64,000 nucleotides of DNA from an uncultured bacterium (lineage in GTDB: Bacteria; Zhuqueibacterota; QNDG01; JAGLOF01). Below, piece after piece: positions 20,702 to 53,205 of this stretch. Each line of letters begins with the position of its first letter. Position 1 is the stretch's first letter. The notes under the pieces were generated by a model that was not told the DNA's origin, did not search any database, and saw nothing but the letters and a program-made list of their open reading frames with translations. The stretch is from positions 5,173 to 69,172 of the forward strand of contig CAZUMH010000006.1 of the NCBI GenBank assembly GCA_964621645.1, in the 5' to 3' direction. Made by a program: the position numbers and the translations under genes.

Positions 20702-22213
20702 GTGAAGTCACTCGGAATTCTCTTTACAGGAGGAAGCCTGTTGAGGAGGTATCATCCTTCAATCATGATGAAGAGCATTCCCCGCCGTGTAACAGGAGTT
20801 GTCCTTATCTCCGCTGCAGTACTGTCCCTTTTCAATGTATCATGTCAGAGAGAAAGAACGGGGCATTTTACGGTCCTGCCTCTCCTCTCCGATAATAAAG
20901 ACCTGGCCTGTTCCGTTGCCTGGGCCGCAGGTCTCAGTTTGAGATCCGCTCCACCCAAACAGATCATTATCCGGCCCTTGCTGAGTCAAACAGGCATGGT
21001 GGTCGAAGATTCCCTGAGTACTGCCGCTGGTGCCAGACGCTATGCCGAACGATCCGGAGTAGATCAGCTGCTGCTGATACACGTCCGACAAACATTATCG
21101 GATAAGGCTGTCCTCGACTGGAGCCTTGTCCGGGTGAAAGGCGAAGAGACCATCCTCAACGCGAACGATACTTTGGTCTACCGGGATGCTGAAGCCTGCT
21201 TTCACCGTCTGGCGGATCGACTCTCCGCTGAACAGGTGCCGGTATCGGCGGCCGCGGATTCTCTTATCCCGGTTATCCCGGAAGGTGATGATTGGCACCG
21301 GTTGGGCCGGGGGCTGCACCGGGAACTCTTCGGAGATGTAACAGCGGCCGAGAGGGCCTACCGGGAGGAGCTCGCATCCTCTCCGGAATGCCGTCCCGCT
21401 TCCTTGGGATTGGCACGGGTTCTGGTGCGGCTGGGACTGCGCTCAAAAGGGACGGGCCGTCTTCCGGATGAACTCTATCAGGAAGCGGAGGAATCCCTGC
21501 GGAAATTACGCCGGGATGGTGCCTTCCGCGCTGAAGCACTGCGGCTGCTGGGAAGACTGTACATTCAGAAAGGCCGTTTCAATGAAGGTGAGCGATTCGT
21601 AAAGCAGGCCTATTCAATCAGGCCTGATGATCCCCGGGTACTGCTGGAGCTGAGCCGGTTGCACCCCTCCCGTTTCCGGGATCTGGGTTTTCGCAGCCGC
21701 CTCGCCATCCTGAACCGCTGCCTGAAACTGAATCCTGCTTTTCTGGAGGCCTCCCTGTCCGCGGCGGATATCTACTATTTCCGCAACCAAACGAAGAAAG
21801 CGGAAGATGTGTATGAGAAGATACTCAGGATAAATCCCGTCTCCCTGGACGCGCTCATGGCTCTGGGCAAGATCTATGTCCTGAAGGGTGATGTGTCCCG
21901 GATCATCACCACCTATCAGCGGGTGCTCGAGATTGATCCTCAATACCCTGAGGCCTACTACAATCTGGGGATCGCTTACTTCAACAGCGACAGGAGAGAG
22001 GAAGCGGCCCGTTTCTTTCACCGGGCGATTGAACTCGATGATCATGCCGACAGTTATTTCTACCTTGGCGTTATAGAAATGGAGGCCGGACATAAAGAGC
22101 AGGCCATACACTACTTCCGGGAACGGATAAAACGCCGCCAGGGTATGGATGATACCTACGCGAATGAGGCGGTGGATAATCTCTATCAGCTGCTGCACGG
22201 GGATGAACAATAA
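20702..22213 (+). CDS. TPR-containing exported or membrane-anchored protein (start uncertain)
   Basis: N-terminal hydrophobic segment with a possible lipobox (FNVSC); several TPRs, e.g. AYYNLGIAYFNSDRREEAARFFHRA. Its stop overlaps the folP start. Confidence 0.75.
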   Translation: MKSLGILFTGGSLLRRYHPSIMMKSIPRRVTGVVLISAAVLSLFNVSCQRERTGHFTVLPLLSDNKDLACSVAWAAGLSLRSAPPKQIIIRPLLSQTGMVVEDSLSTAAGARRYAERSGVDQLLLIHVRQTLSDKAVLDWSLVRVKGEETILNANDTLVYRDAEACFHRLADRLSAEQVPVSAAADSLIPVIPEGDDWHRLGRGLHRELFGDVTAAERAYREELASSPECRPASLGLARVLVRLGLRSKGTGRLPDELYQEAEESLRKLRRDGAFRAEALRLLGRLYIQKGRFNEGERFVKQAYSIRPDDPRVLLELSRLHPSRFRDLGFRSRLAILNRCLKLNPAFLEASLSAADIYYFRNQTKKAEDVYEKILRINPVSLDALMALGKIYVLKGDVSRIITTYQRVLEIDPQYPEAYYNLGIAYFNSDRREEAARFFHRAIELDDHADSYFYLGVIEMEAGHKEQAIHYFRERIKRRQGMDDTYANEAVDNLYQLLHGDEQ

Positions 22214-23388
22214 TGACGCTGCGCCTGTTCCATTATTGCGACACGGATGAGCTCGCGGAACGGCTGGCTGAAATGGAAGCGGGACCGGTCCCGGCAGCCA
22301 GCCCGGAGGAGGGATGGGTGCTCGTCGGAGAGGACATTGATGCAGACGTGCTCAGATCGATCCCGGCGATGGTTTCTGAGGAGATTCCCGCATTAGTGGT
22401 CCGTCCGGAGTCCCCGGCCTCCAGATCGTTCATTATCATCACGAACATGCTACAGTCACTGAGCCGCAGCGGTAAAGAAATCCTGCCGCCGGCCCTGGCA
22501 GCGTCATGTCTCCAACTGCTGGGATCCTATCGCACTGGCGCGCCCCCTACGCTGATGCTTGGCAATAGAGAAGTAGATCTTTCCCACAAGACCCATGTCA
22601 TGGGGATTCTCAATGTTACTCCAGACTCCTTCTACGACGGCGGCCGCTACCGGGATCACGATAAAGCCGTTGAGCGAGGTCTGGAGCTTGCTGCACAGGG
22701 AGCGGATTTTATCGACGTCGGGGGGGAGTCGTCCCGTCCCGGGGCAGAGCCCGTCGGTATCGAGGAAGAACTGGCACGGGTCATCCCGGTAATCGAACAG
22801 CTCCACGGGGCGACCAGTGTACCGCTTTCCATCGATACGAGGAAATCCGAAGTAGCCGAGGCCGCCCTAAAAGCGGGGGCCTCCGTCATCAACGACATCA
22901 GCGGATTGCGCAGTGATCCCCGCATGGCCGTTTTGGCCGCGAAGAGCGGCGCGGCTCTGATCCTGATGCACATGAAGGGCACACCGGGGACCATGCAGTC
23001 CGATCCCCTGGGGGGAGATATCATGGGAGCTATCTACCAGGGCCTGGCCTCCAGTATGGAAACGGCTCTGGATGCGGGTGTATCCCGGGATAGAATCATC
23101 CTTGATCCGGGGATCGGTTTCGGCAAGAAGCGGCCGGATAATTTCACCATTATCCGGCGCCTGGATGAATTGCGGGGATTGGGCCGTCCGCTTCTGATGG
23201 GAATTTCCCGAAAATCATGCCTGGGGTGGCTGCTTGACCTGCCCGAGGACGAACGTCTGGTGCCGTCTCTGGCGGCTGCGGTAGCCAGTTCCGTGAGGGG
23301 CGCGCAAATACTCCGGGTGCACGATGTCAAGGAAACGGTGCAGGCGCTGTGCGTGGCCGACCGGATCTCTAAACGGGAGACAGGATAA
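22213..23388 (+). CDS. folP: Dihydropteroate synthase with N-terminal extension
   Basis: MGILNVTPDSFYDGG, IDVGGESSRPG, SIDTRK, INDISG, LDPGIGFGK, GISRKS and RVHDV. Confidence 0.96.
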   Translation: MTLRLFHYCDTDELAERLAEMEAGPVPAASPEEGWVLVGEDIDADVLRSIPAMVSEEIPALVVRPESPASRSFIIITNMLQSLSRSGKEILPPALAASCLQLLGSYRTGAPPTLMLGNREVDLSHKTHVMGILNVTPDSFYDGGRYRDHDKAVERGLELAAQGADFIDVGGESSRPGAEPVGIEEELARVIPVIEQLHGATSVPLSIDTRKSEVAEAALKAGASVINDISGLRSDPRMAVLAAKSGAALILMHMKGTPGTMQSDPLGGDIMGAIYQGLASSMETALDAGVSRDRIILDPGIGFGKKRPDNFTIIRRLDELRGLGRPLLMGISRKSCLGWLLDLPEDERLVPSLAAAVASSVRGAQILRVHDVKETVQALCVADRISKRETG

Positions 23389-42506: not shown

Positions 42507-43661
42507 TTAACGGAAGCCTGTCTCCGGTGCGTGGGGCAGCCGTTCCAGAGGCCTGGTCAGCTGGAAACGGCCCTCGGCAATCCAGGATTTGAGGATATTG
42601 GAGATGCGTCGCGCTTTTTCCAGACTGGAAAGAAGATAGGCGGGCACATCCTCTCCGCATACCCGCACGCTTCCGTTCATGATCTCTTCCACGGTGGTCT
42701 CGTCCAACACTATCCCGGTCTTCTGGGGATAATCACAGCTGTAATCGACTATGGGCACCCGGATATCACGATTCCGCACTGATACGAACCGCAGCATCTC
42801 CTCATCCAGGATCGGAATGGGAACTCCCAATCCCACCATCATACTGGTACCGTAATTTTTTAAATATACGCCGCGCAGCCATTGGGCGGACATCTGTTTC
42901 AGATCACCGGTAACGGCCATCGTTCCAGCTGGCTTACAGGGGATTCCTCTTTCATTTCTGGGAGCTGCGGGAGCGTGCTGGGTTCCGGGGCCGGTCACGT
43001 ATCCTATTCCCCCGCCTAAAAAAATACGGGTGCCCACTCCTATGGTACGGAAATATGGATCGTTCATGAGAGGACTGAGCTCCCCGGCCCCGCTGTAGGT
43101 GGCATTGCCGTAGCGCGGTTTTAAAACACCCATGTAGGTATGAATCGTACGGGTGGAACCGTTTACAGCGCAGTTGTAATTTTGATAGGCGTTGCGGGGA
43201 CAAAACAGAAAGGCATCCGGAAGATCGGCCAGAGAGATTTCTTTCTCCAAGATCAGGCCGGGGTAGCAGTCGGTACCTGTTCCTTCAGCGCTCAGTGTTA
43301 TCTTCCCTCCGGAAAGTAAATCCTGGATGACATGACCGCCGCCGTAGCGTGCCGGTCCATCCGTCCCGTTTTCCCGCGGCTGAGTGGCTCCGAGGTAGCA
43401 ATCCACCGCAGCCAGTCCGGCGTAAGCTTCGACTCCGTTAAGCCTGATCCGGCGCAGTTTCATACGGGGGGTGGGGTGGCCGATGTTGAAAAAGGCGCCG
43501 GAGGAGCACATGACACCGAAGGTTCCGGTGGTGACCACATCGACCTGCCTGGCAGTGCGTTCCACGCCGTGACGGTCGATACAGCGCAGGACTTCCTCGG
43601 CCGTGACCACCACCGCCTGCCGGCGGCGGATTTTCTCGTTTATTTTTTCGTAAGTCCTCAT
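42507..43661 (-). CDS. Homocysteine biosynthesis protein (DUF39/COG1900; aspartate-semialdehyde sulfurtransferase-like), no CBS domains
   Basis: RTYEKINEKI...AVVVTAEE, VDVVTTGTFGVMCSSGA, GTDCYP, NAYQNY and GIGVGTRIFLGG-like segments characteristic of the family. Confidence 0.9.
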   Translation of the reverse strand: MRTYEKINEKIRRRQAVVVTAEEVLRCIDRHGVERTARQVDVVTTGTFGVMCSSGAFFNIGHPTPRMKLRRIRLNGVEAYAGLAAVDCYLGATQPRENGTDGPARYGGGHVIQDLLSGGKITLSAEGTGTDCYPGLILEKEISLADLPDAFLFCPRNAYQNYNCAVNGSTRTIHTYMGVLKPRYGNATYSGAGELSPLMNDPYFRTIGVGTRIFLGGGIGYVTGPGTQHAPAAPRNERGIPCKPAGTMAVTGDLKQMSAQWLRGVYLKNYGTSMMVGLGVPIPILDEEMLRFVSVRNRDIRVPIVDYSCDYPQKTGIVLDETTVEEIMNGSVRVCGEDVPAYLLSSLEKARRISNILKSWIAEGRFQLTRPLERLPHAPETGFR

Positions 43662-43685
43662 GCTTTCCTCCCTATGCTGATACGA

Positions 43686-45065
43686 TCAGTCATTTCCATT
43701 GAGAAAAAGACGGTGCACTGCCTGTACGCTTGCGTTGACGCACTGGCGGGGTACAATGAAATAGGCGGCCACCCGGGAGGCACCGGAAACAACCAGGTGT
43801 ACGTGACTGCCGCTTTTATTAATTGTTCCGATCACATCGGTCAGACAGCCTTCCGATTCCGCCAGTCCCTGTCCGACCACGGCCACCAGACCGATGCTGT
43901 CCACCGGCTCGATTTGATCGATACCGGATGGCACGATCCGTCTCAGCGTCTTTTCGGCCGGATCGAGATCGGATCGGTCCAGCAGGATGTTGATGCAGGT
44001 CTGGCTGGTCATGACCGAGCGGATGTTCACACCGCTTTGCCCCAAGGCCGAAACCAGAATTCCCAGAAGGCCGGTTGCATAACCGACATCCGCGCCATGT
44101 ACCCGTAAGAGAGCGATGTCTTCCTTGTAGGTGACGCTTTTTATCACGCCTTTCTGTACCGGGCTGTTTTTGGTTATGATGGTTCCAGGATTGTCCGGGT
44201 GAAAGGTATTGCGGATATAAATTGGAATAGCAGTATCCAGCAGGGGCTCGACGGTGCGGGGGTGGAGGATGCCGGCACCAAAATAGGCGAGTTCGGCGGC
44301 TTCGTCATAGGAGAGAGAGGGGATGATACGGCTGGAGGTAACTACCTGGGGGGCCGCGCTGAGAAATCCATCCACATCCTTCCACATCTCCAAACGGTCG
44401 GCTTCCAGGCAGGCAGCCAGAACGGCGGCGACATAATCGGATCCGCCCCTGCCGAAAGTAAGGGGAACGCCTGGAGACCTCTGTCCGAAAAAGCCGGTGA
44501 CCAACGGCAGCTTTCCTTCCCGGAGGACGGCATGAATGTGCCGCGGCAGGAGTTCTCTGGTCCACTTCAGATCGGCGCTGGCGTTGCCCCAGGGACCGCG
44601 GCCCACCAGATCGATCCCGTCGCCCTCCAGCAGGGCGCAGGTCCTGCCCCGGGCCTCAAGAATGCCTGCCATTACCGTGACGGCCAGCCGTTCACCCATG
44701 GAGAGGATGTGGTCCTGCAGGCGGGGAGTGACCTCGCCTGTGTAGGATATCCCGGTACAGAGACGCTGCAGTCTTATTGTCAGCTGGTCGATCCCGGCAA
44801 AGGTCTTGTTGCGGATCAGGCTGTCCGGAATGCATTCCCGTGCCACCCGATGATGCCGGTCGCTGAGATCGCTCAATTGGGCCTGAAGGCTGTTTTCAGA
44901 CTCGAGCGCTACCCGCATGGTTTCCAGGAGCGTATCGGTGACTCCGTCAAAGGCGGAGAGAACAGCAACTATCCGTTTCCCTGAAGCTGAGGCGATGCGG
45001 AGGGCCGCTTCAAAAATGGAATCGCTTGCTTGCAGGGTCGATCCGCCGAATTTCATCACAATCAT
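43686..45065 (-). CDS. lysC: Monofunctional aspartate kinase with ACT domains
   Basis: MIVMKFGGS, VLSAFDGVTD, SMGER, TFGRGGSDY, WKDVDG, SYDEAAELAYFGA and two ACT repeats. The start overlaps the upstream stop (ATGA at 45062-45065). Confidence 0.93.
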   Translation of the reverse strand: MIVMKFGGSTLQASDSIFEAALRIASASGKRIVAVLSAFDGVTDTLLETMRVALESENSLQAQLSDLSDRHHRVARECIPDSLIRNKTFAGIDQLTIRLQRLCTGISYTGEVTPRLQDHILSMGERLAVTVMAGILEARGRTCALLEGDGIDLVGRGPWGNASADLKWTRELLPRHIHAVLREGKLPLVTGFFGQRSPGVPLTFGRGGSDYVAAVLAACLEADRLEMWKDVDGFLSAAPQVVTSSRIIPSLSYDEAAELAYFGAGILHPRTVEPLLDTAIPIYIRNTFHPDNPGTIITKNSPVQKGVIKSVTYKEDIALLRVHGADVGYATGLLGILVSALGQSGVNIRSVMTSQTCINILLDRSDLDPAEKTLRRIVPSGIDQIEPVDSIGLVAVVGQGLAESEGCLTDVIGTINKSGSHVHLVVSGASRVAAYFIVPRQCVNASVQAVHRLFLNGND

Positions 45066-45829
45066 TCTTTTTCCCCTTTCACAGGTAATACAGTCGTTCT
45101 GCGACCCGGCAGACATCCCCGGGTAATGAGACCGGTATCGTATGGAATTCTTTTCAGAGCAGGGAGGCTCCCCCACAGAGCTATGTCTCGTCCCAGCACG
45201 GCCAGGCCGCCTTCGATCTCGGGTATATCAGCCAGAACGTCGAAACAGTTAGTCAGGTCTTTTTTACTCAGCACCCGATTGCCAAGGGCGGTAGCCGCTG
45301 CGTCCGCTGTCACCAGATCAAAGGAGACAACCAGGGCCGCGTCCGCCTTTCCATAGCTGTGCGAATGTCCCACGGTTCCGGAAGAGGTGGCGATTCCAAA
45401 GGGTCGCGGGCGAGGGAGAGCTTCCAGCGCCAATTCCACGGGAAACCCGGGGCCGCAGTAGAGGCCCACCAGTACGGGCGAGGTGACGAACAGCGCGATA
45501 TCGCCGCCGTTGTCCACCACGGCTTCCGGTGCCCCGGCTTTGAGCAGAGAGTCCAGACATTCCCAAGCCACCATCCCCGCAACCGCGGCCATGGGGCCGA
45601 CTCCGCTTTTTTCCGCGGAGAGATACATCCTTTTAATCGATTCAGGGACTCGATCGGGAATATCCAGGGGGTCGTGTGAGGCGGCGAATTCCGGATGCAG
45701 GCTGATCCACTGCCGCAGAAGGCCGCGGGTTCTGCGTACAGAATCCACGGCAGCGGGAAAGAATTTCTTCTCTACCAGAACCGTCAGGATGCTCTCTCCG
45801 ATTTCAATATGATGTCTTTGCCAGCGCAT
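45062..45829 (-). CDS. UPF0280 (ApbE-like, COG2122) protein
   Basis: HPEFAASHDP, GVGPMAAVAG, VVDNGGDIA, GIATSSGTVGHSHSYGKADA and ADAAATALGN. Confidence 0.9.
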   Translation of the reverse strand: MRWQRHHIEIGESILTVLVEKKFFPAAVDSVRRTRGLLRQWISLHPEFAASHDPLDIPDRVPESIKRMYLSAEKSGVGPMAAVAGMVAWECLDSLLKAGAPEAVVDNGGDIALFVTSPVLVGLYCGPGFPVELALEALPRPRPFGIATSSGTVGHSHSYGKADAALVVSFDLVTADAAATALGNRVLSKKDLTNCFDVLADIPEIEGGLAVLGRDIALWGSLPALKRIPYDTGLITRGCLPGRRTTVLPVKGEKE

Positions 45830-45838
45830 AATTCACAT

Positions 45839-45873
45839 AAAAAAAGCCCGCGGCTTTGGAAGCCGCGGGCTTT
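45839..45873 (-). terminator. Attenuator terminator
   Basis: RNA: AAAGCCCGCGGCUU-CCA-AAGCCGCGGGCUUUUUUU. A perfect 14-bp inverted repeat plus U7, ending 10 nt before the UPF0280 ATG on the same strand. Confidence 0.88.
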
Positions 45874-45899
45874 GTATCCTTGTCCAATGCTATGACTAC

Positions 45900-45998
45900 C
45901 TAGACATGTCCCACGGCCTCCCTATAAGCGCTGCGCATGCCCATAAAGGTGACACTCATGTTCATGATGGCGGGAATTGTCCGGCGTGTGTTATTCAT
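45900..45998 (-). CDS. Putative Met-rich leader peptide (32 aa): MNNTRRTIPAIMNMSVTFMGMRSAYREAVGHV
   Basis: Translated by hand; below the ORF-track size cut-off. Met codons at positions 12, 14, 19 and 21, plus three Thr and two Ile codons. Lies between a sigma70 promoter and the terminator; purine-rich upstream region. Confidence 0.78.
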   Translation of the reverse strand: MNNTRRTIPAIMNMSVTFMGMRSAYREAVGHV

Positions 45999-46043
45999 TT
46001 TACCTGTTTTACTTCCTTGCGATACTTTTTATTGATGGGGATA

Positions 46044-46072
46044 AATATACGATCCGTGGATATCAGTGTCAA
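46044..46072 (-). promoter_or_regulatory. Sigma70 promoter of the leader/homocysteine operon
   Basis: Minus strand TTGACA-N17-TATATT (consensus -35, near-consensus -10). Confidence 0.8.
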
Positions 46073-46148
46073 GGAAAAAATCCCCGTATAATTATTTTTT
46101 TAACAATAATTGCTGACAAGTTCCGGGCGGACAGTCATCTGTGCGGGA

Positions 46149-47117
46149 TTAATTCGGCAGACTGTCGCGGTAACGCAGCAATCTTTCCCTAACCATTCCG
46201 GGGTCCGTCATCTGGAAGAGCTCTTGCCTCAGCCGGGTGCTCCCCGGCATTCCCCGGGTGTACCAGCCCAGATGTTTGCGCATTTCTTTTACCGCCGTTT
46301 CTTCCCGTTCTAGGGTGAGGGCGAGCCGGTAGTGATCCAGGCAGATGGCGATTCTTTCCTGAAAGGACGGGTCGGGAGGAACCTCACCCTTCTCTAAAAG
46401 CTGGGCCACCTGCCGGAAGATCCAGGGGCGGCCCAGGGCGCCCCTTCCGATCATGACGGCGTTGCAGCCGGTCAGGGTCAGCATGTTTTGGGCATCGCCG
46501 GCACTCTGAATGTCTCCGTTTCCGATAACCGGGATGGTGACGGATTCCTTTACCTGCTTGATCAAATCCCAATCCGCCTTGCCTTTGAAGGCCATGTCGC
46601 GGGTGCGGGGATGCAGAATGACCGCCGCGGCGCCTTCTTCCTGGAGGATCCGGGCCGCCTGCAGGGCCACGATATTTTTCTCGTTCCAGCCGGAGCGAAT
46701 CTTCCCCGTCACCGGCAGACTGGTGGCCGCGATAACCTCTCTGATTACGGCCCGCAGTTTCTTCAAATCCCGCAGCAGGGCGGAACCGGACCCGTTTTTC
46801 ACCACTTTTTTTGCTGGACAGCCGAAATTGAGGTCGATCCAGTCGGGAGAGGCCTCCTCGGCTGACAGGGCCGCCCGGGCCATCGTCTGGGGATCCTTAC
46901 CGAATATCTGGACCGCGAAGGGGCGTTCGCTGGCTCCGGCTTCTATCATTCCCCGGGTGCGCTGGTTTTCCCGCACAAGACCGTCGGCGCTTACCAGTTC
47001 CGAGCAGGTGGCGGCCGCACCGAAGGAACGGCAGATGCGCCGGAAAGAGGCATCTGCCACACCCGCCATGGGAGCCAGCAGGGCTCCAGCATCAAGTTCC
47101 AGGCTGCCTATCCTCAT
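46149..47117 (-). CDS. dusB: tRNA-dihydrouridine synthase B
   Basis: LLAPMAGV, VQIFG, IDLNFGCPAKKV, GKIRSG, HPRTR, IGNGDI and VMIGRG. Confidence 0.95.
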   Translation of the reverse strand: MRIGSLELDAGALLAPMAGVADASFRRICRSFGAAATCSELVSADGLVRENQRTRGMIEAGASERPFAVQIFGKDPQTMARAALSAEEASPDWIDLNFGCPAKKVVKNGSGSALLRDLKKLRAVIREVIAATSLPVTGKIRSGWNEKNIVALQAARILQEEGAAAVILHPRTRDMAFKGKADWDLIKQVKESVTIPVIGNGDIQSAGDAQNMLTLTGCNAVMIGRGALGRPWIFRQVAQLLEKGEVPPDPSFQERIAICLDHYRLALTLEREETAVKEMRKHLGWYTRGMPGSTRLRQELFQMTDPGMVRERLLRYRDSLPN

Positions 47118-51375: not shown

Positions 51376-52668
51376 ATGAAACGGGTGTACATATCTGATA
51401 TCGCCGCCTATGAAGGCAAGGAAATCACGCTGAAAGGATGGTTGTATAACAAGCGGTCCAGCGGCAAACTCTGGTTTCTCCTGGTCCGGGACGGAACAGG
51501 CCTGATTCAGGGTGTCGTCTCCCAGGCCGATGTGGATGAAGATTCTTTTGAGGGTTGTGCTGATCTGACCCAGGAATCCTCCCTGGAAATAACCGGTACG
51601 GTGAGCCCTGATAAACGAGCCCCCGGCGGCTTCGAACTGCAGGTAACCCATGTGAAACCTGTCCAGATCGCCCAGGATTATCCCATTTCTCCCAAAGAGC
51701 ACGGTACTGCTTTTCTGATGGACCATCGCCATCTCTGGCTGCGTTCAGCCCGCCAGACGGCGATTCTCAAGGTCCGCCACGAGATCATCAAGGCCTGCCG
51801 CGATTACTTCGACAGCAACGGGTTTACTCTGGTGGATACGCCCATCTTCACCCCGGCCGCCTGTGAAGGCACCACCACCCTTTTCGAGACGGATTATTTC
51901 GGCGAGAAAGCCTATCTTACCCAGAGCGGACAGCTCTACAGTGAAGCTTCCATCGGGGCCCTGGGAAAGGTCTACTGTTTCGGCCCCACCTTCAGGGCCG
52001 AAAAATCCAAGACGCGCCGACATCTCACCGAGTTCTGGATGGTGGAGCCGGAGGTAGCCTTCGCTGACCTTGACGACAACATGGGTCTGGCCGAAGATTT
52101 TATTTCTTTCGTCGTCGGCCGGGTGCTGACCAACCGCCGGGCGGAACTGGAGAAACTGGAGCGCGATCCCGCTCCGCTGGAACGGGTGGTACCGCCCTTT
52201 CCCCGAATCACCTATGACGAAGCGGTTCAGATCCTGCGGAACCATAAGGTGGCATTTAAAGACGGTGATGATTTCGGCGGCGGAGACGAGACCGTTATCT
52301 CGGAACAGTTCGACCGTCCGGTCATGGTGCATCGCTATCCGGCTGCGGTCAAGGCCTTTTATATGAAACGAGATCCCCAGGATGACAGCAAGGCTCTGGG
52401 AGTGGATGTATTGGCTCCGGAAGGATACGGCGAGATCATCGGGGGCGGCCAGCGGGAAGACGACTATGATGTCCTGGTGTCCCGCATCAAGGAACACGGC
52501 CTGCCCCCGGAAGCCTTCGACTGGTATCTGGATCTGCGGCGGTATGGGACCATGCCCCATTCCGGATTCGGCATGGGGATCGAGCGCACTGTGGCCTGGA
52601 TCTGTAAACTTCCGCATGTGCGCGAGACCATCCCCTTTCCGCGGCTGATGCACCGCCTTACTCCCTGA
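51376..52668 (+). CDS. asnS: Asparagine--tRNA ligase
   Basis: OB-fold start [48 protein letters not shown] and GFGMGIER. Confidence 0.97.
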
Positions 52669-52689
52669 GAAGATGAAGCGGATGATCCA

Positions 52690-53205
52690 TTGCAAAAAAA
52701 TGAGAGTTGTTCCATGTCCCTTGCGAGTGGACCGGGAAGAATCCAGATCGCGGTGATCGGCGGGCGGGAAGCCGATCCGCGGCTGCTCCGCTTTGCCGAA
52801 GAGGTTGGGCAGCTGCTGGCCCGCAGGGGAGCGGTTTTGATCTGCGGCGGCATGAGCGGCATCATGGAGGCCGCCTGCCGCGGGGCCGGAGAAGCCGGCG
52901 GAACCACCGTGGGAATCCTCCCGGGGGAGCGGGCAGATGAGGGGAATCCCTATCTCGACATCGTTCTTCCCACCGGCTTGGGATTGGCCCGCAACGTACT
53001 GGTGGTGCGTGCCGCGGATGGGGTGATCGCGGTGGGCGGCAGGTACGGCACCCTTTCCGAGATCGCCTGCGCCGCGCAATTGGGGATCCCGCTGGTCCTG
53101 CTGGAAAGCTGGCACGTGGATGACAGCATCCCCACGGCCGCCACCCCGGAAGAGGCGGTGCAGCTGCTCTTCTCACTGCTGCCGCCCTCAGCAGGGGAGA
53201 AATAA
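52690..53205 (+). CDS. TIGR00725 family protein (LOG/DprA-like Rossmann fold); possible start at 52714
   Basis: IAVIGG, CGGMSGIMEAACRGA, GILPG, PTGLGLARN and GTLSEI. Confidence 0.88.
   Translation: MQKNESCSMSLASGPGRIQIAVIGGREADPRLLRFAEEVGQLLARRGAVLICGGMSGIMEAACRGAGEAGGTTVGILPGERADEGNPYLDIVLPTGLGLARNVLVVRAADGVIAVGGRYGTLSEIACAAQLGIPLVLLESWHVDDSIPTAATPEEAVQLLFSLLPPSAGEK

Follow-up and report, generated by a model that had tools for sequence, protein, structure and literature searches.

A probable methionine-regulated operon for the sulfide-dependent DUF39 route to homocysteine in an uncultured bacterium, with a predicted Met-codon leader attenuator

The enzyme L-ASST (L-aspartate-semialdehyde sulfurtransferase) consists of a COG1900a subunit, MA1821, which has an essential Cys54 and a conserved Cys131, and of MA1822, a NIL-ferredoxin. 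Methionine is bound by the NIL domain, and S-adenosylmethionine (SAM) is sensed by the CBS pair of MA1821 (PMC12068725). Desulfovibrio needs all three of a DUF39, a NIL/ferredoxin and a COG2122 protein, whose genes lie apart from one another, and its route does not pass through homoserine (PMC5764234; PMC4045070); genetic work in Methanosarcina likewise supports the roles of these proteins (PMC12068725). A comparative study states that, wherever RNA-based control of methionine genes has been established, it is exerted by S-box riboswitches (PMC1262725). Here, a three-gene operon is described on the minus strand (45829-42507) of a 64,000-nucleotide (nt) stretch of contig CAZUMH010000006.1 from an uncultured bacterium; this whole stretch is called the window. 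The gene order is UPF0280, aspartate kinase (AK) and DUF39. The locus is likely to be a methionine-regulated operon for the sulfide-dependent (DUF39/L-ASST) route to homocysteine, and its control would be a ribosome-mediated attenuation that reads the charging of methionine tRNA (Met-tRNA).

The three open reading frames (ORFs) are tightly packed and co-directional. The stop codon TGA of UPF0280 (45064..45062) and the start codon ATG of the AK (45065..45063) overlap as ATGA, and a 24-nt gap containing GGGAGG lies between the end of the AK (43686) and the start of DUF39 (43661). Clear GGAG-type Shine-Dalgarno sites precede the AK and DUF39, and UPF0280 is without one. At 0.575, the G+C fraction of the operon differs little from the value of 0.548 for the window. 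Upstream, the 320-nt spacer between the stop of dus (46149) and UPF0280 holds, in order, a promoter-like site, a leader ORF and a terminator, all on the minus strand. The promoter-like site (46044..46072) has the form TTGACA, 17-nt spacer, TATATT, and agrees with the consensus at 11 of 12 positions, a consensus match only. The leader ORF (45900..45998; 32 codons and TAG) encodes MNNTRRTIPAIMNMSVTFMGMRSAYREAVGHV and was likewise predicted as a gene where the same sequence had been assembled independently (L001 1968-2066). Its internal Met codons are M12 (45965..45963), M14 (45959..45957), M19 (45944..45942) and M21 (45938..45936), all within 45936..45965. An intrinsic terminator follows at 45839..45873, with a 14-bp stem (AAAGCCCGCGGCTT / AAGCCGCGGGCTTT; 9 of 14 pairs G-C), a 3-nt loop and a run of seven T residues; the hairpin has a stability of about -25.7 kcal/mol, and the T-run ends 9 nt upstream of the UPF0280 ATG. 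A role of this terminator as the mere end of dus was considered and is unlikely: its distance from the dus stop is 276 nt, and both the promoter-like site and the leader ORF fall within this interval. The terminator hairpin may also gate translation of UPF0280, since this gene lacks a Shine-Dalgarno site and starts 9 nt past the T-run. The initial annotation had reported the three co-directional genes with their overlap and gap, which the ORF coordinates and junction sequence bear out, and had pointed to a Met-rich leader tying UPF0280 to methionine; that leader is indeed present at 45998..45900, and leader and terminator together are conserved in 11 loci including the window.

The window's gene order, with a short DUF39 (378-390 aa), recurs in the loci L082, L086, L167, L171, L172 and L173. 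In L168 (5851-8968), Asd takes the place of the AK between UPF0280 and DUF39, and L169 and L170 have UPF0280 and DUF39 only. Identity to the window proteins within this clade is 47-55% for UPF0280, 45-52% for the AK and 53-65% for DUF39, and the operon is vertically inherited within the clade, since L082 and L167 share the downstream patatin and HisKA_2 genes. In each of the 11 readable clade loci, the window among them, a leader with an M-x-M core and then a terminator lie ahead of UPF0280, although the clade proteins are only 45-65% identical to those of the window. The other leader peptides are MKIIQSIFSYTDWALMPMGMRKTQPQALGGVRP (L082), MNTACFTSTYTFWALMPMGMRKTQPQALGGVRP (L172), MKVSAKHFYFGYSIMGMRNSRSIVGFRQGPY (L086, GTG start), MIQFGFTITQTTWGMMSMGMRITTQQVMGKEYLR (L167), MVYLHKKYMYMMMFYFMRKSGLAAGLPD (L168), MRYLEHGRSIMGMWMHLANAGVR (L169, GTG start), MIHRGNGQNSMDMRNSCGFVGGFR (L170), MIPVRVHIPAEMFMGMPCSHRGYGISP (L171), MIHLTSRQNIMGMRRSAVFIVGFMP (L173) and, truncated at its 5' end, ...LMMGMQISRFAGFR (L087). 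The richest Met run, MYMMMFYFM, is found in the L168 leader. Of the codons in nine complete leaders (L172 being omitted as near-identical to L082), 12.1% (30/248) specify internal Met; the corresponding figure for the three operon proteins is 1.5-2.9%. A blind scan covering both strands of 3.9 Mb looked for strong terminators with an M-x-M or MM ORF ending 25-90 nt upstream of the T-run; of 162 strong terminators, 12 had such an ORF, and nine of these 12 were UPF0280 leaders. In most loci, UPF0280 starts 2-13 nt past the T-run, and in the window, L167, L168, L169, L170 and L171 a start this close comes without a Shine-Dalgarno site.

The leader might instead be a structured RNA, such as an uncatalogued SAM or methionine riboswitch or a protein-binding site, in which the small ORF is incidental. 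At 45936-45946 of the minus strand, the 11-mer ATGGGCATGCG, encoding M-G-M-R/Q, is near-invariant in seven of the 11 leaders (window, L082, L086, L087, L167, L172 and L173), and its counterparts in L169 and L171 differ by one base. This nucleotide conservation, with the palindrome GCATGC inside, exceeds the need of the Met codons alone and would fit an RNA or DNA motif. The structured-RNA explanation also finds some favor in the cognate covariation of the antiterminator, which is not significant, and in the DUF39 operon of a Thermovenabulum metagenome-assembled genome (L081), which does carry a SAM-I riboswitch. On the other hand, the nucleotides differ in L168 (ATGTATATGATGATG...ATGAGA) while the clustered Met codons and a similar ORF length are kept; L170 has ATGGACATGCGG; and the Arg that follows M-G-M is encoded by synonymous codons (CGC, CGG and CGT). 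The divergent nucleotides of L168 and the synonymous Arg variation argue for translation over an RNA motif. Start codon, frame and stop are preserved in every locus not cut by a contig end, with the stop 45-66 nt before the T-run. No riboswitch was matched by Rfam at the gathering score in the window, nor at E <= 10 in 45700..46250; the only Rfam matches of the leader are sub-threshold ones to operon leader models (Thr, His, Leu and Trp), and the fold of the whole leader is only marginally more stable than that of shuffled sequences (z = -2.1). Taken together, a structured RNA is a very improbable explanation of the element, and a translated leader is preferred.

The riboswitch of L081 (8129-8242, plus strand; 96 bits) lies directly 5' of DUF39 - NIL-ferredoxin - UPF0280 and is the sole SAM riboswitch among the 18 bacterial loci scanned. 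It places this type of DUF39 operon independently in the methionine regulon. A c-di-GMP-I riboswitch (cyclic di-GMP; L051 3889-3976, plus strand) was seen in a Dehalococcoidia locus and is unrelated to the homocysteine genes.

For a translated leader to act as an attenuator, an antiterminator is expected. The candidate strand, segment 2 (GAGGCCGTGGGA; 45909..45920, minus strand), lies within the 3' end of the leader ORF, and in the window its duplex with the 5' arm of the terminator has a stability of -19.4 kcal/mol versus a shuffle mean of -11.6 (sd 2.3), 0.2% of 500 shuffles being as good. The distance from the last Met codon to the start of segment 2 is 18 nt, and that from the end of segment 2 to the end of the stop codon is 10 nt, a position which would leave it just beyond a ribosome stalled at the last Met and underneath a terminating ribosome. 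Folded without translation, the leader pairs segment 2 with a CCCGCC segment immediately 5' of the first Met pair, and the classical 1:2 / 2:3 / 3:4 layout is thus obtained. When co-transcriptional folding was computed with a ribosome at the last Met codon and before the 3' arm had been made, seven of nine loci, the window included, paired segment 2 with the 5' arm. The mean arm-paired probability is 0.50-0.86 with the ribosome at the last Met and 0.28-0.39 when it is at the stop codon, except in the window (0.65). Across loci the statistics are weak, the duplexes being only marginally better than shuffles in five of nine. The antiterminator is hence well supported in the window and plausible in the other loci.

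The following scheme is proposed. When methionine is plentiful, the ribosome would reach the leader stop and cover segment 2, the terminator (45873..45839) would form, and transcription would halt 9 nt before UPF0280. When methionine is scarce, the ribosome would stall at AUG12/14 or AUG19/21, segment 2 (45920..45909) would pair with the 5' arm, and read-through into UPF0280-AK-DUF39 would result. Read-through would thereby respond to the charging of Met-tRNA. Of the enzymes expressed in this way, the AK would convert aspartate to aspartyl-4-phosphate, and an Asd encoded elsewhere would yield aspartate semialdehyde. The DUF39 protein would combine aspartate semialdehyde with sulfide to form homocysteine, with Cys52 as the probable catalytic residue (compare the persulfide-carrying Cys54 of MA1821). 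The UPF0280/COG2122 protein would be the accessory factor that, as genetics shows, the homocysteine step needs, and the electrons would come from a ferredoxin encoded outside the window.

The DUF39 gene (42507..43661, minus strand) encodes a 384-aa HcyBio protein (PF01837) of the COG1900a type, the putative catalytic subunit of L-ASST. The match to the PF01837 HcyBio profile is full-length (E 2e-146; 487.7 bits versus a gathering score of 26.2), residues 16-368 covering profile positions 1-349 of 349. In an alignment that took in the Methanosarcinales homologues, with their numbering of Cys54 and Cys131, Cys52 of the window protein (VMCSSG) aligns with the essential Cys54 of MA1821 (GxMCSSG), and this column is Cys in 20/20 aligned bacterial and archaeal homologues and in 120/120 database matches. 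Cys132 (GTDCYPG) aligns with Cys131 of MA1821 (TDCYP) and is Cys in 20/20 homologues and in 119/120 database matches. Family membership and both diagnostic cysteines support an assignment as the homocysteine-forming L-ASST. Pfam detects neither a CBS nor a ferredoxin domain in the protein, which ends 16 residues past HcyBio. The missing CBS pair does not exclude membership in L-ASST because Dde_3007 is also without CBS (PMC4045070). Relatives at 58-65% identity are already named 'homocysteine biosynthesis protein' or 'L-aspartate semialdehyde sulfurtransferase' in public annotation. The exact sequence is not on record in the database look-up, and a metagenome scan for relatives gave, among the matches listed, identities of up to 48% (<=48%).

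COG1900 also includes the coenzyme M (CoM) synthase MMP16, for which L-ASST may partly substitute (PMC12068725), and TIGR03287 gives a partial match to the window protein. The protein might therefore catalyze another aldehyde-to-thiol conversion of the CoM or coenzyme B type, as MMP16/ComF (COG1900d) does, and not homocysteine synthesis. The TIGR03287 score is only 152.5 bits against a cut-off of 363.95, however; the protein has no inserted ferredoxin domain and no Fer4 motif, and its cysteines are at COG1900a, not COG1900d, positions. The scanned ORFs of the window give no hint of CoM metabolism, and three features, namely the Met-codon leader, the kinase and the linkage to Asd, speak for the branch from aspartate to methionine. 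A CoM-type activity is accordingly considered extremely improbable, and CoM synthase was rejected as an identity for the protein.

Three further cysteines, Cys88, Cys154 (sometimes Ser) and Cys164, are common to the window DUF39 and most of its ~40 closest database relatives; these positions are mostly Ala, Asn or Val in more distant DUF39 proteins. The three residues coincide with the clade that has no linked ferredoxin, and Cys88 and Cys164 are present too in some DUF39 proteins with an adjacent NIL-ferredoxin. No ORF of at least 30 aa in the window matches a hidden Markov model (HMM) built from 41 NIL-ferredoxins of related loci, and no window ORF carries a CxxCxxCxxxC motif. The same NIL-ferredoxin search found none in the 10 clade loci searched versus 83 matches in other loci. 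Absence from the window is uninformative by itself, given that in D. vulgaris these genes lie at three separate places (PMC5764234). An iron-sulfur protein gene with Fer4_19 and zf-CDGSH domains (L086 4772-5437, minus strand) is divergent from, and adjoins, the leader and UPF0280 in L086; its product is a possible redox-partner candidate, unconserved in that it occurs in this one clade locus only. It is conceivable, but doubtful, that the clade represents a distinct bacterial DUF39 subclass in which the sulfurtransferase has lost all known modules for allostery and electron donation (CBS, NIL and a fused or adjacent ferredoxin) and has gained Cys88/154/164. Electrons or sulfur would then pass through a metal or disulfide site of its own or through COG2122, and feedback would be exerted wholly by the Met-codon attenuator.

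The AK gene (43686..45065, minus strand) encodes a monofunctional enzyme of 459 aa with an AA_kinase domain (1-286) and two ACT domains, ACT_7 (314-376, under the gathering score) and ACT_9 (394-454); Pfam finds no homoserine dehydrogenase domain. The TIGR00657 aspartate kinase model scores 298.6 bits against a cut-off of 208.7, and the closest solved structures are those of the M. jannaschii AK (3c1m/2hmf; E 4e-76) and the A. thaliana AK (2cdq). A Shine-Dalgarno-like sequence, AAAGGGGA, lies upstream of the ATG at 45065. This start is favored over a GTG at 45176 because the homologues in L082, L167 and L171 (457-467 aa) begin directly after UPF0280. A monofunctional kinase lacking a homoserine dehydrogenase domain fits a route that bypasses homoserine. 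In E. coli, MetL (aspartokinase II - homoserine dehydrogenase II) is the methionine-repressed kinase isozyme. The window AK is best read as a Met-branch isozyme, which would keep aspartate semialdehyde flowing when the kinases inhibited by Lys or Thr are shut, a role resembling that of the kinase half of MetL.

The kinase could also be the general, or only, AK of the cell, present in the operon by chance or for co-expression. Its absence from L169 and L170 and its replacement by Asd in L168 indicate that it is not obligatory for the module, and this much is in keeping with such an explanation. A sole AK behind a Met-responsive terminator, however, would be expected to starve the synthesis of Lys, Thr and diaminopimelate at plentiful methionine. 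Moreover, the AK occupies the same operon position in seven loci including the window, at the identities given above, and AK and/or Asd have been recruited independently to DUF39-UPF0280 clusters in Aminicenantes, Eubacteriales, Planctomycetota, Thorarchaeota and Thermoplasmata. A general kinase is thus quite unlikely. The repeated linkage implies that the supply of aspartate semialdehyde is co-selected with the DUF39 enzyme.

The wider distribution of these genes was surveyed in a set of loci anchored on UPF0280, with one genome per species (n=80). DUF39 lies <=10 kb from UPF0280 in 48/80 loci and an AK in 10/80, the usual gene order being DUF39 - NIL-ferredoxin - UPF0280. The order DUF39::ferredoxin - UPF0280 - Asd - AK was read fully in L003, L009, L016 and L021, and the same gene spacing is seen in L015 and L029. 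In these fusion operons, the DUF39 has a C-terminal 2x[4Fe-4S] ferredoxin (L003 6460-11024, L009 8644-13201, L016 8644-13177 and L021 8634-13166), and the whole path from aspartate to homocysteine is in one transcription unit; the hosts are Aminicenantes, Eubacteriales, an uncultured archaeon and Thorarchaeota.

The first gene of the window operon (45062..45829, minus strand) encodes a 255-aa ApbE-like protein of the UPF0280/COG2122 family, the predicted accessory factor of the DUF39 homocysteine route. As the local copy of Pfam is without a UPF0280 model, the family was called through NCBIfam, PF27030, named relatives and structure. The PRK04334/UPF0280 models of NCBIfam match over their full length (E 2e-64 to 3e-19), PF27030 is assigned, 7617 relatives are found in databases, those at 47-52% identity being named 'UPF0280 family protein', and the protein matches the structure 2o34 of the Protein Data Bank (E 1.7e-26).

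Several observations count against a methionine-attenuated homocysteine operon and have to be set beside the evidence above. The Shine-Dalgarno site of the leader ORF is weak. In L082/L172, L167 and L171, the antiterminator duplex does not surpass those of shuffled sequences, and in a permutation that swapped arms between loci, cognate specificity was not significant (p = 0.09), because all the terminator arms are similar G+C-rich sequences of the GCCC type. UPF0280 falls under all NCBIfam equivalog cut-offs (217 versus 275 bits). Electron supply is unaccounted for, since neither the window nor the 10 clade loci offer a ferredoxin/NIL partner. Among the window ORFs scanned with Pfam (~23 of ~54), asd, metE, metH and metK were not found, nor were further methionine or sulfur genes. 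None of the RNA runs checked for the window sequence contain it.

The DUF39 route may furthermore be auxiliary, if a complete direct- or trans-sulfhydrylation pathway is also present in the genome and the operon supplements it under sulfidic conditions. Nothing in the window speaks against this, and a possible minor alternative route in D. vulgaris was raised by Price et al. (PMC5764234). Still, the canonical genes are absent from those organisms studied so far that combine DUF39 and COG2122 with a NIL-ferredoxin (PMC5764234; PMC4045070), and a tight, Met-specific control would suggest a main biosynthetic role. An auxiliary function is therefore rather unlikely.

The neighbors of the operon are housekeeping genes: dus, DUF374, DUF4416, purM, plsY, gpsA, tilS, ftsH, cdaA and genes for a patatin-like protein, a HisKA_2 kinase and a pterin-binding, folP-like protein. 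The pterin-binding (PF00809) protein (22213-23388, plus strand), in a tilS-ftsH-TPR-folP-cdaA cluster, has an unexplained N-terminal extension of ~130 residues and is probably a dihydropteroate synthase, not a methionine synthase module. At 51745..53115 (minus strand), the longest ORF of that region (456 aa) has no Pfam match and is a spurious antisense ORF; the real genes there are on the plus strand and encode a class-II aminoacyl-tRNA synthetase-like protein (51376..52668; asnS/aspS-like by its motifs) and a protein of 171 aa (52690..53205). Salt-marsh metagenomes contain the window sequence, and the source habitat is assumed to be sulfidic sediment. The best FtsH relatives are labeled 'bacterium', and the nearest named ones belong to Calditrichaeota, LCP-89 and Bacteroidetes (66-73% identity). 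The host is consequently placed, coarsely, as an uncultured bacterium resembling the Fibrobacteres-Chlorobi-Bacteroidetes (FCB) group.

The initial annotation had proposed a methanogen-type homocysteine route with a dedicated AK. A DUF39/COG2122 route with a co-regulated monofunctional AK is upheld by family membership, both cysteines and the recurrent AK/Asd linkage, and the conservation of the MCSSG cysteine, which had been set as a check, is that of the Cys52 column described above. The lack of CBS domains in DUF39 (Pfam) and of a NIL-ferredoxin gene in the window (HMM and motif search) was likewise seen correctly, and the Methanosarcina background that it cited is accurate (PMC5764234; PMC12068725). 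The proposed pathway is thus supported, while its specificity to methanogens is not, given the Desulfovibrio genetics of 2014 and 2018. Because of these genetics and of relatives already annotated as homocysteine biosynthesis proteins, the pathway is less novel than had been implied.

The pathway and all three protein families are hence known, and the enzymes routinely add one bacterial lineage (FCB-group-like, from salt marsh) to a pathway that is already annotated. The Met-codon attenuator is probably a new regulatory variant. The controls otherwise known for methionine genes are SAM riboswitches, T-boxes and regulatory proteins, and a methionine-codon leader-peptide attenuator was found neither in Rfam 15 nor in a search of the full-text literature. 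If true, classical attenuation would extend to an amino acid for which textbooks have only riboswitch, T-box and protein control. The Met-codon leader with its terminator also provides independent evidence, based on regulation, that COG2122, DUF39 and the linked kinase/Asd belong to the methionine regulon. The repeated recruitment of AK and/or Asd supports aspartate semialdehyde as the branch point and would explain how flux is protected from Lys/Thr feedback. Finally, the clade with no linked ferredoxin offers a defined set of sequences for asking which donor feeds electrons to L-ASST.

Compared with MA1821/MA1822 and MA1715 of Methanosarcina acetivorans, the window locus shares the full-length PF01837 domain, both cysteines (54->52 and 131->132) and a COG2122/UPF0280 partner. 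Unlike the M. acetivorans system, it is without the C-terminal CBS pair (the SAM sensor) on DUF39, and neither the window nor the clade loci have the NIL-ferredoxin subunit (methionine sensor and electron donor). The extra cysteines of the clade at 88, 154 and 164, the position of UPF0280 as the first gene of the operon and the inserted kinase are further differences. A bacterial DUF39 without CBS, accompanied by COG2122, is shared with Desulfovibrio (Dde_3007; DvMF_1464 for DUF39, DvMF_0262 for NIL/ferredoxin and DvMF_0044 for COG2122) and with Dehalococcoides DET0919-DET0921. The genetics of Desulfovibrio make aspartate semialdehyde, and not homoserine, the branch point and show that the ferredoxin partner can be unlinked. 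Whereas the genes of D. vulgaris are dispersed and have no linked kinase, those of the window are in one operon with the AK and a predicted leader-peptide attenuator.

On the regulatory side, the element resembles the trpL, hisL, thrL, leuL, pheL and ilv leaders (RF00513, RF00514, RF00506 and RF00512) in its short ORF, its clustered codons for the end product and its terminator with a candidate alternative antiterminator, placed immediately 5' of the biosynthetic operon. It differs from these classical attenuators in that the regulatory codon is AUG (Met) and in that the host is an FCB-group-like uncultured bacterium. As with MetL of E. coli, expression of an aspartate kinase appears to be tied to the supply of methionine; the window kinase is monofunctional, however, and its control is predicted to be by attenuation and not by MetJ. 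The Thermovenabulum operon (L081) encodes the same enzymes, and there too regulation is placed in a 5' leader that holds a termination switch. That operon senses SAM by an RNA aptamer, whereas the clade of the window would sense the charging of Met-tRNA by translation of the leader ORF.

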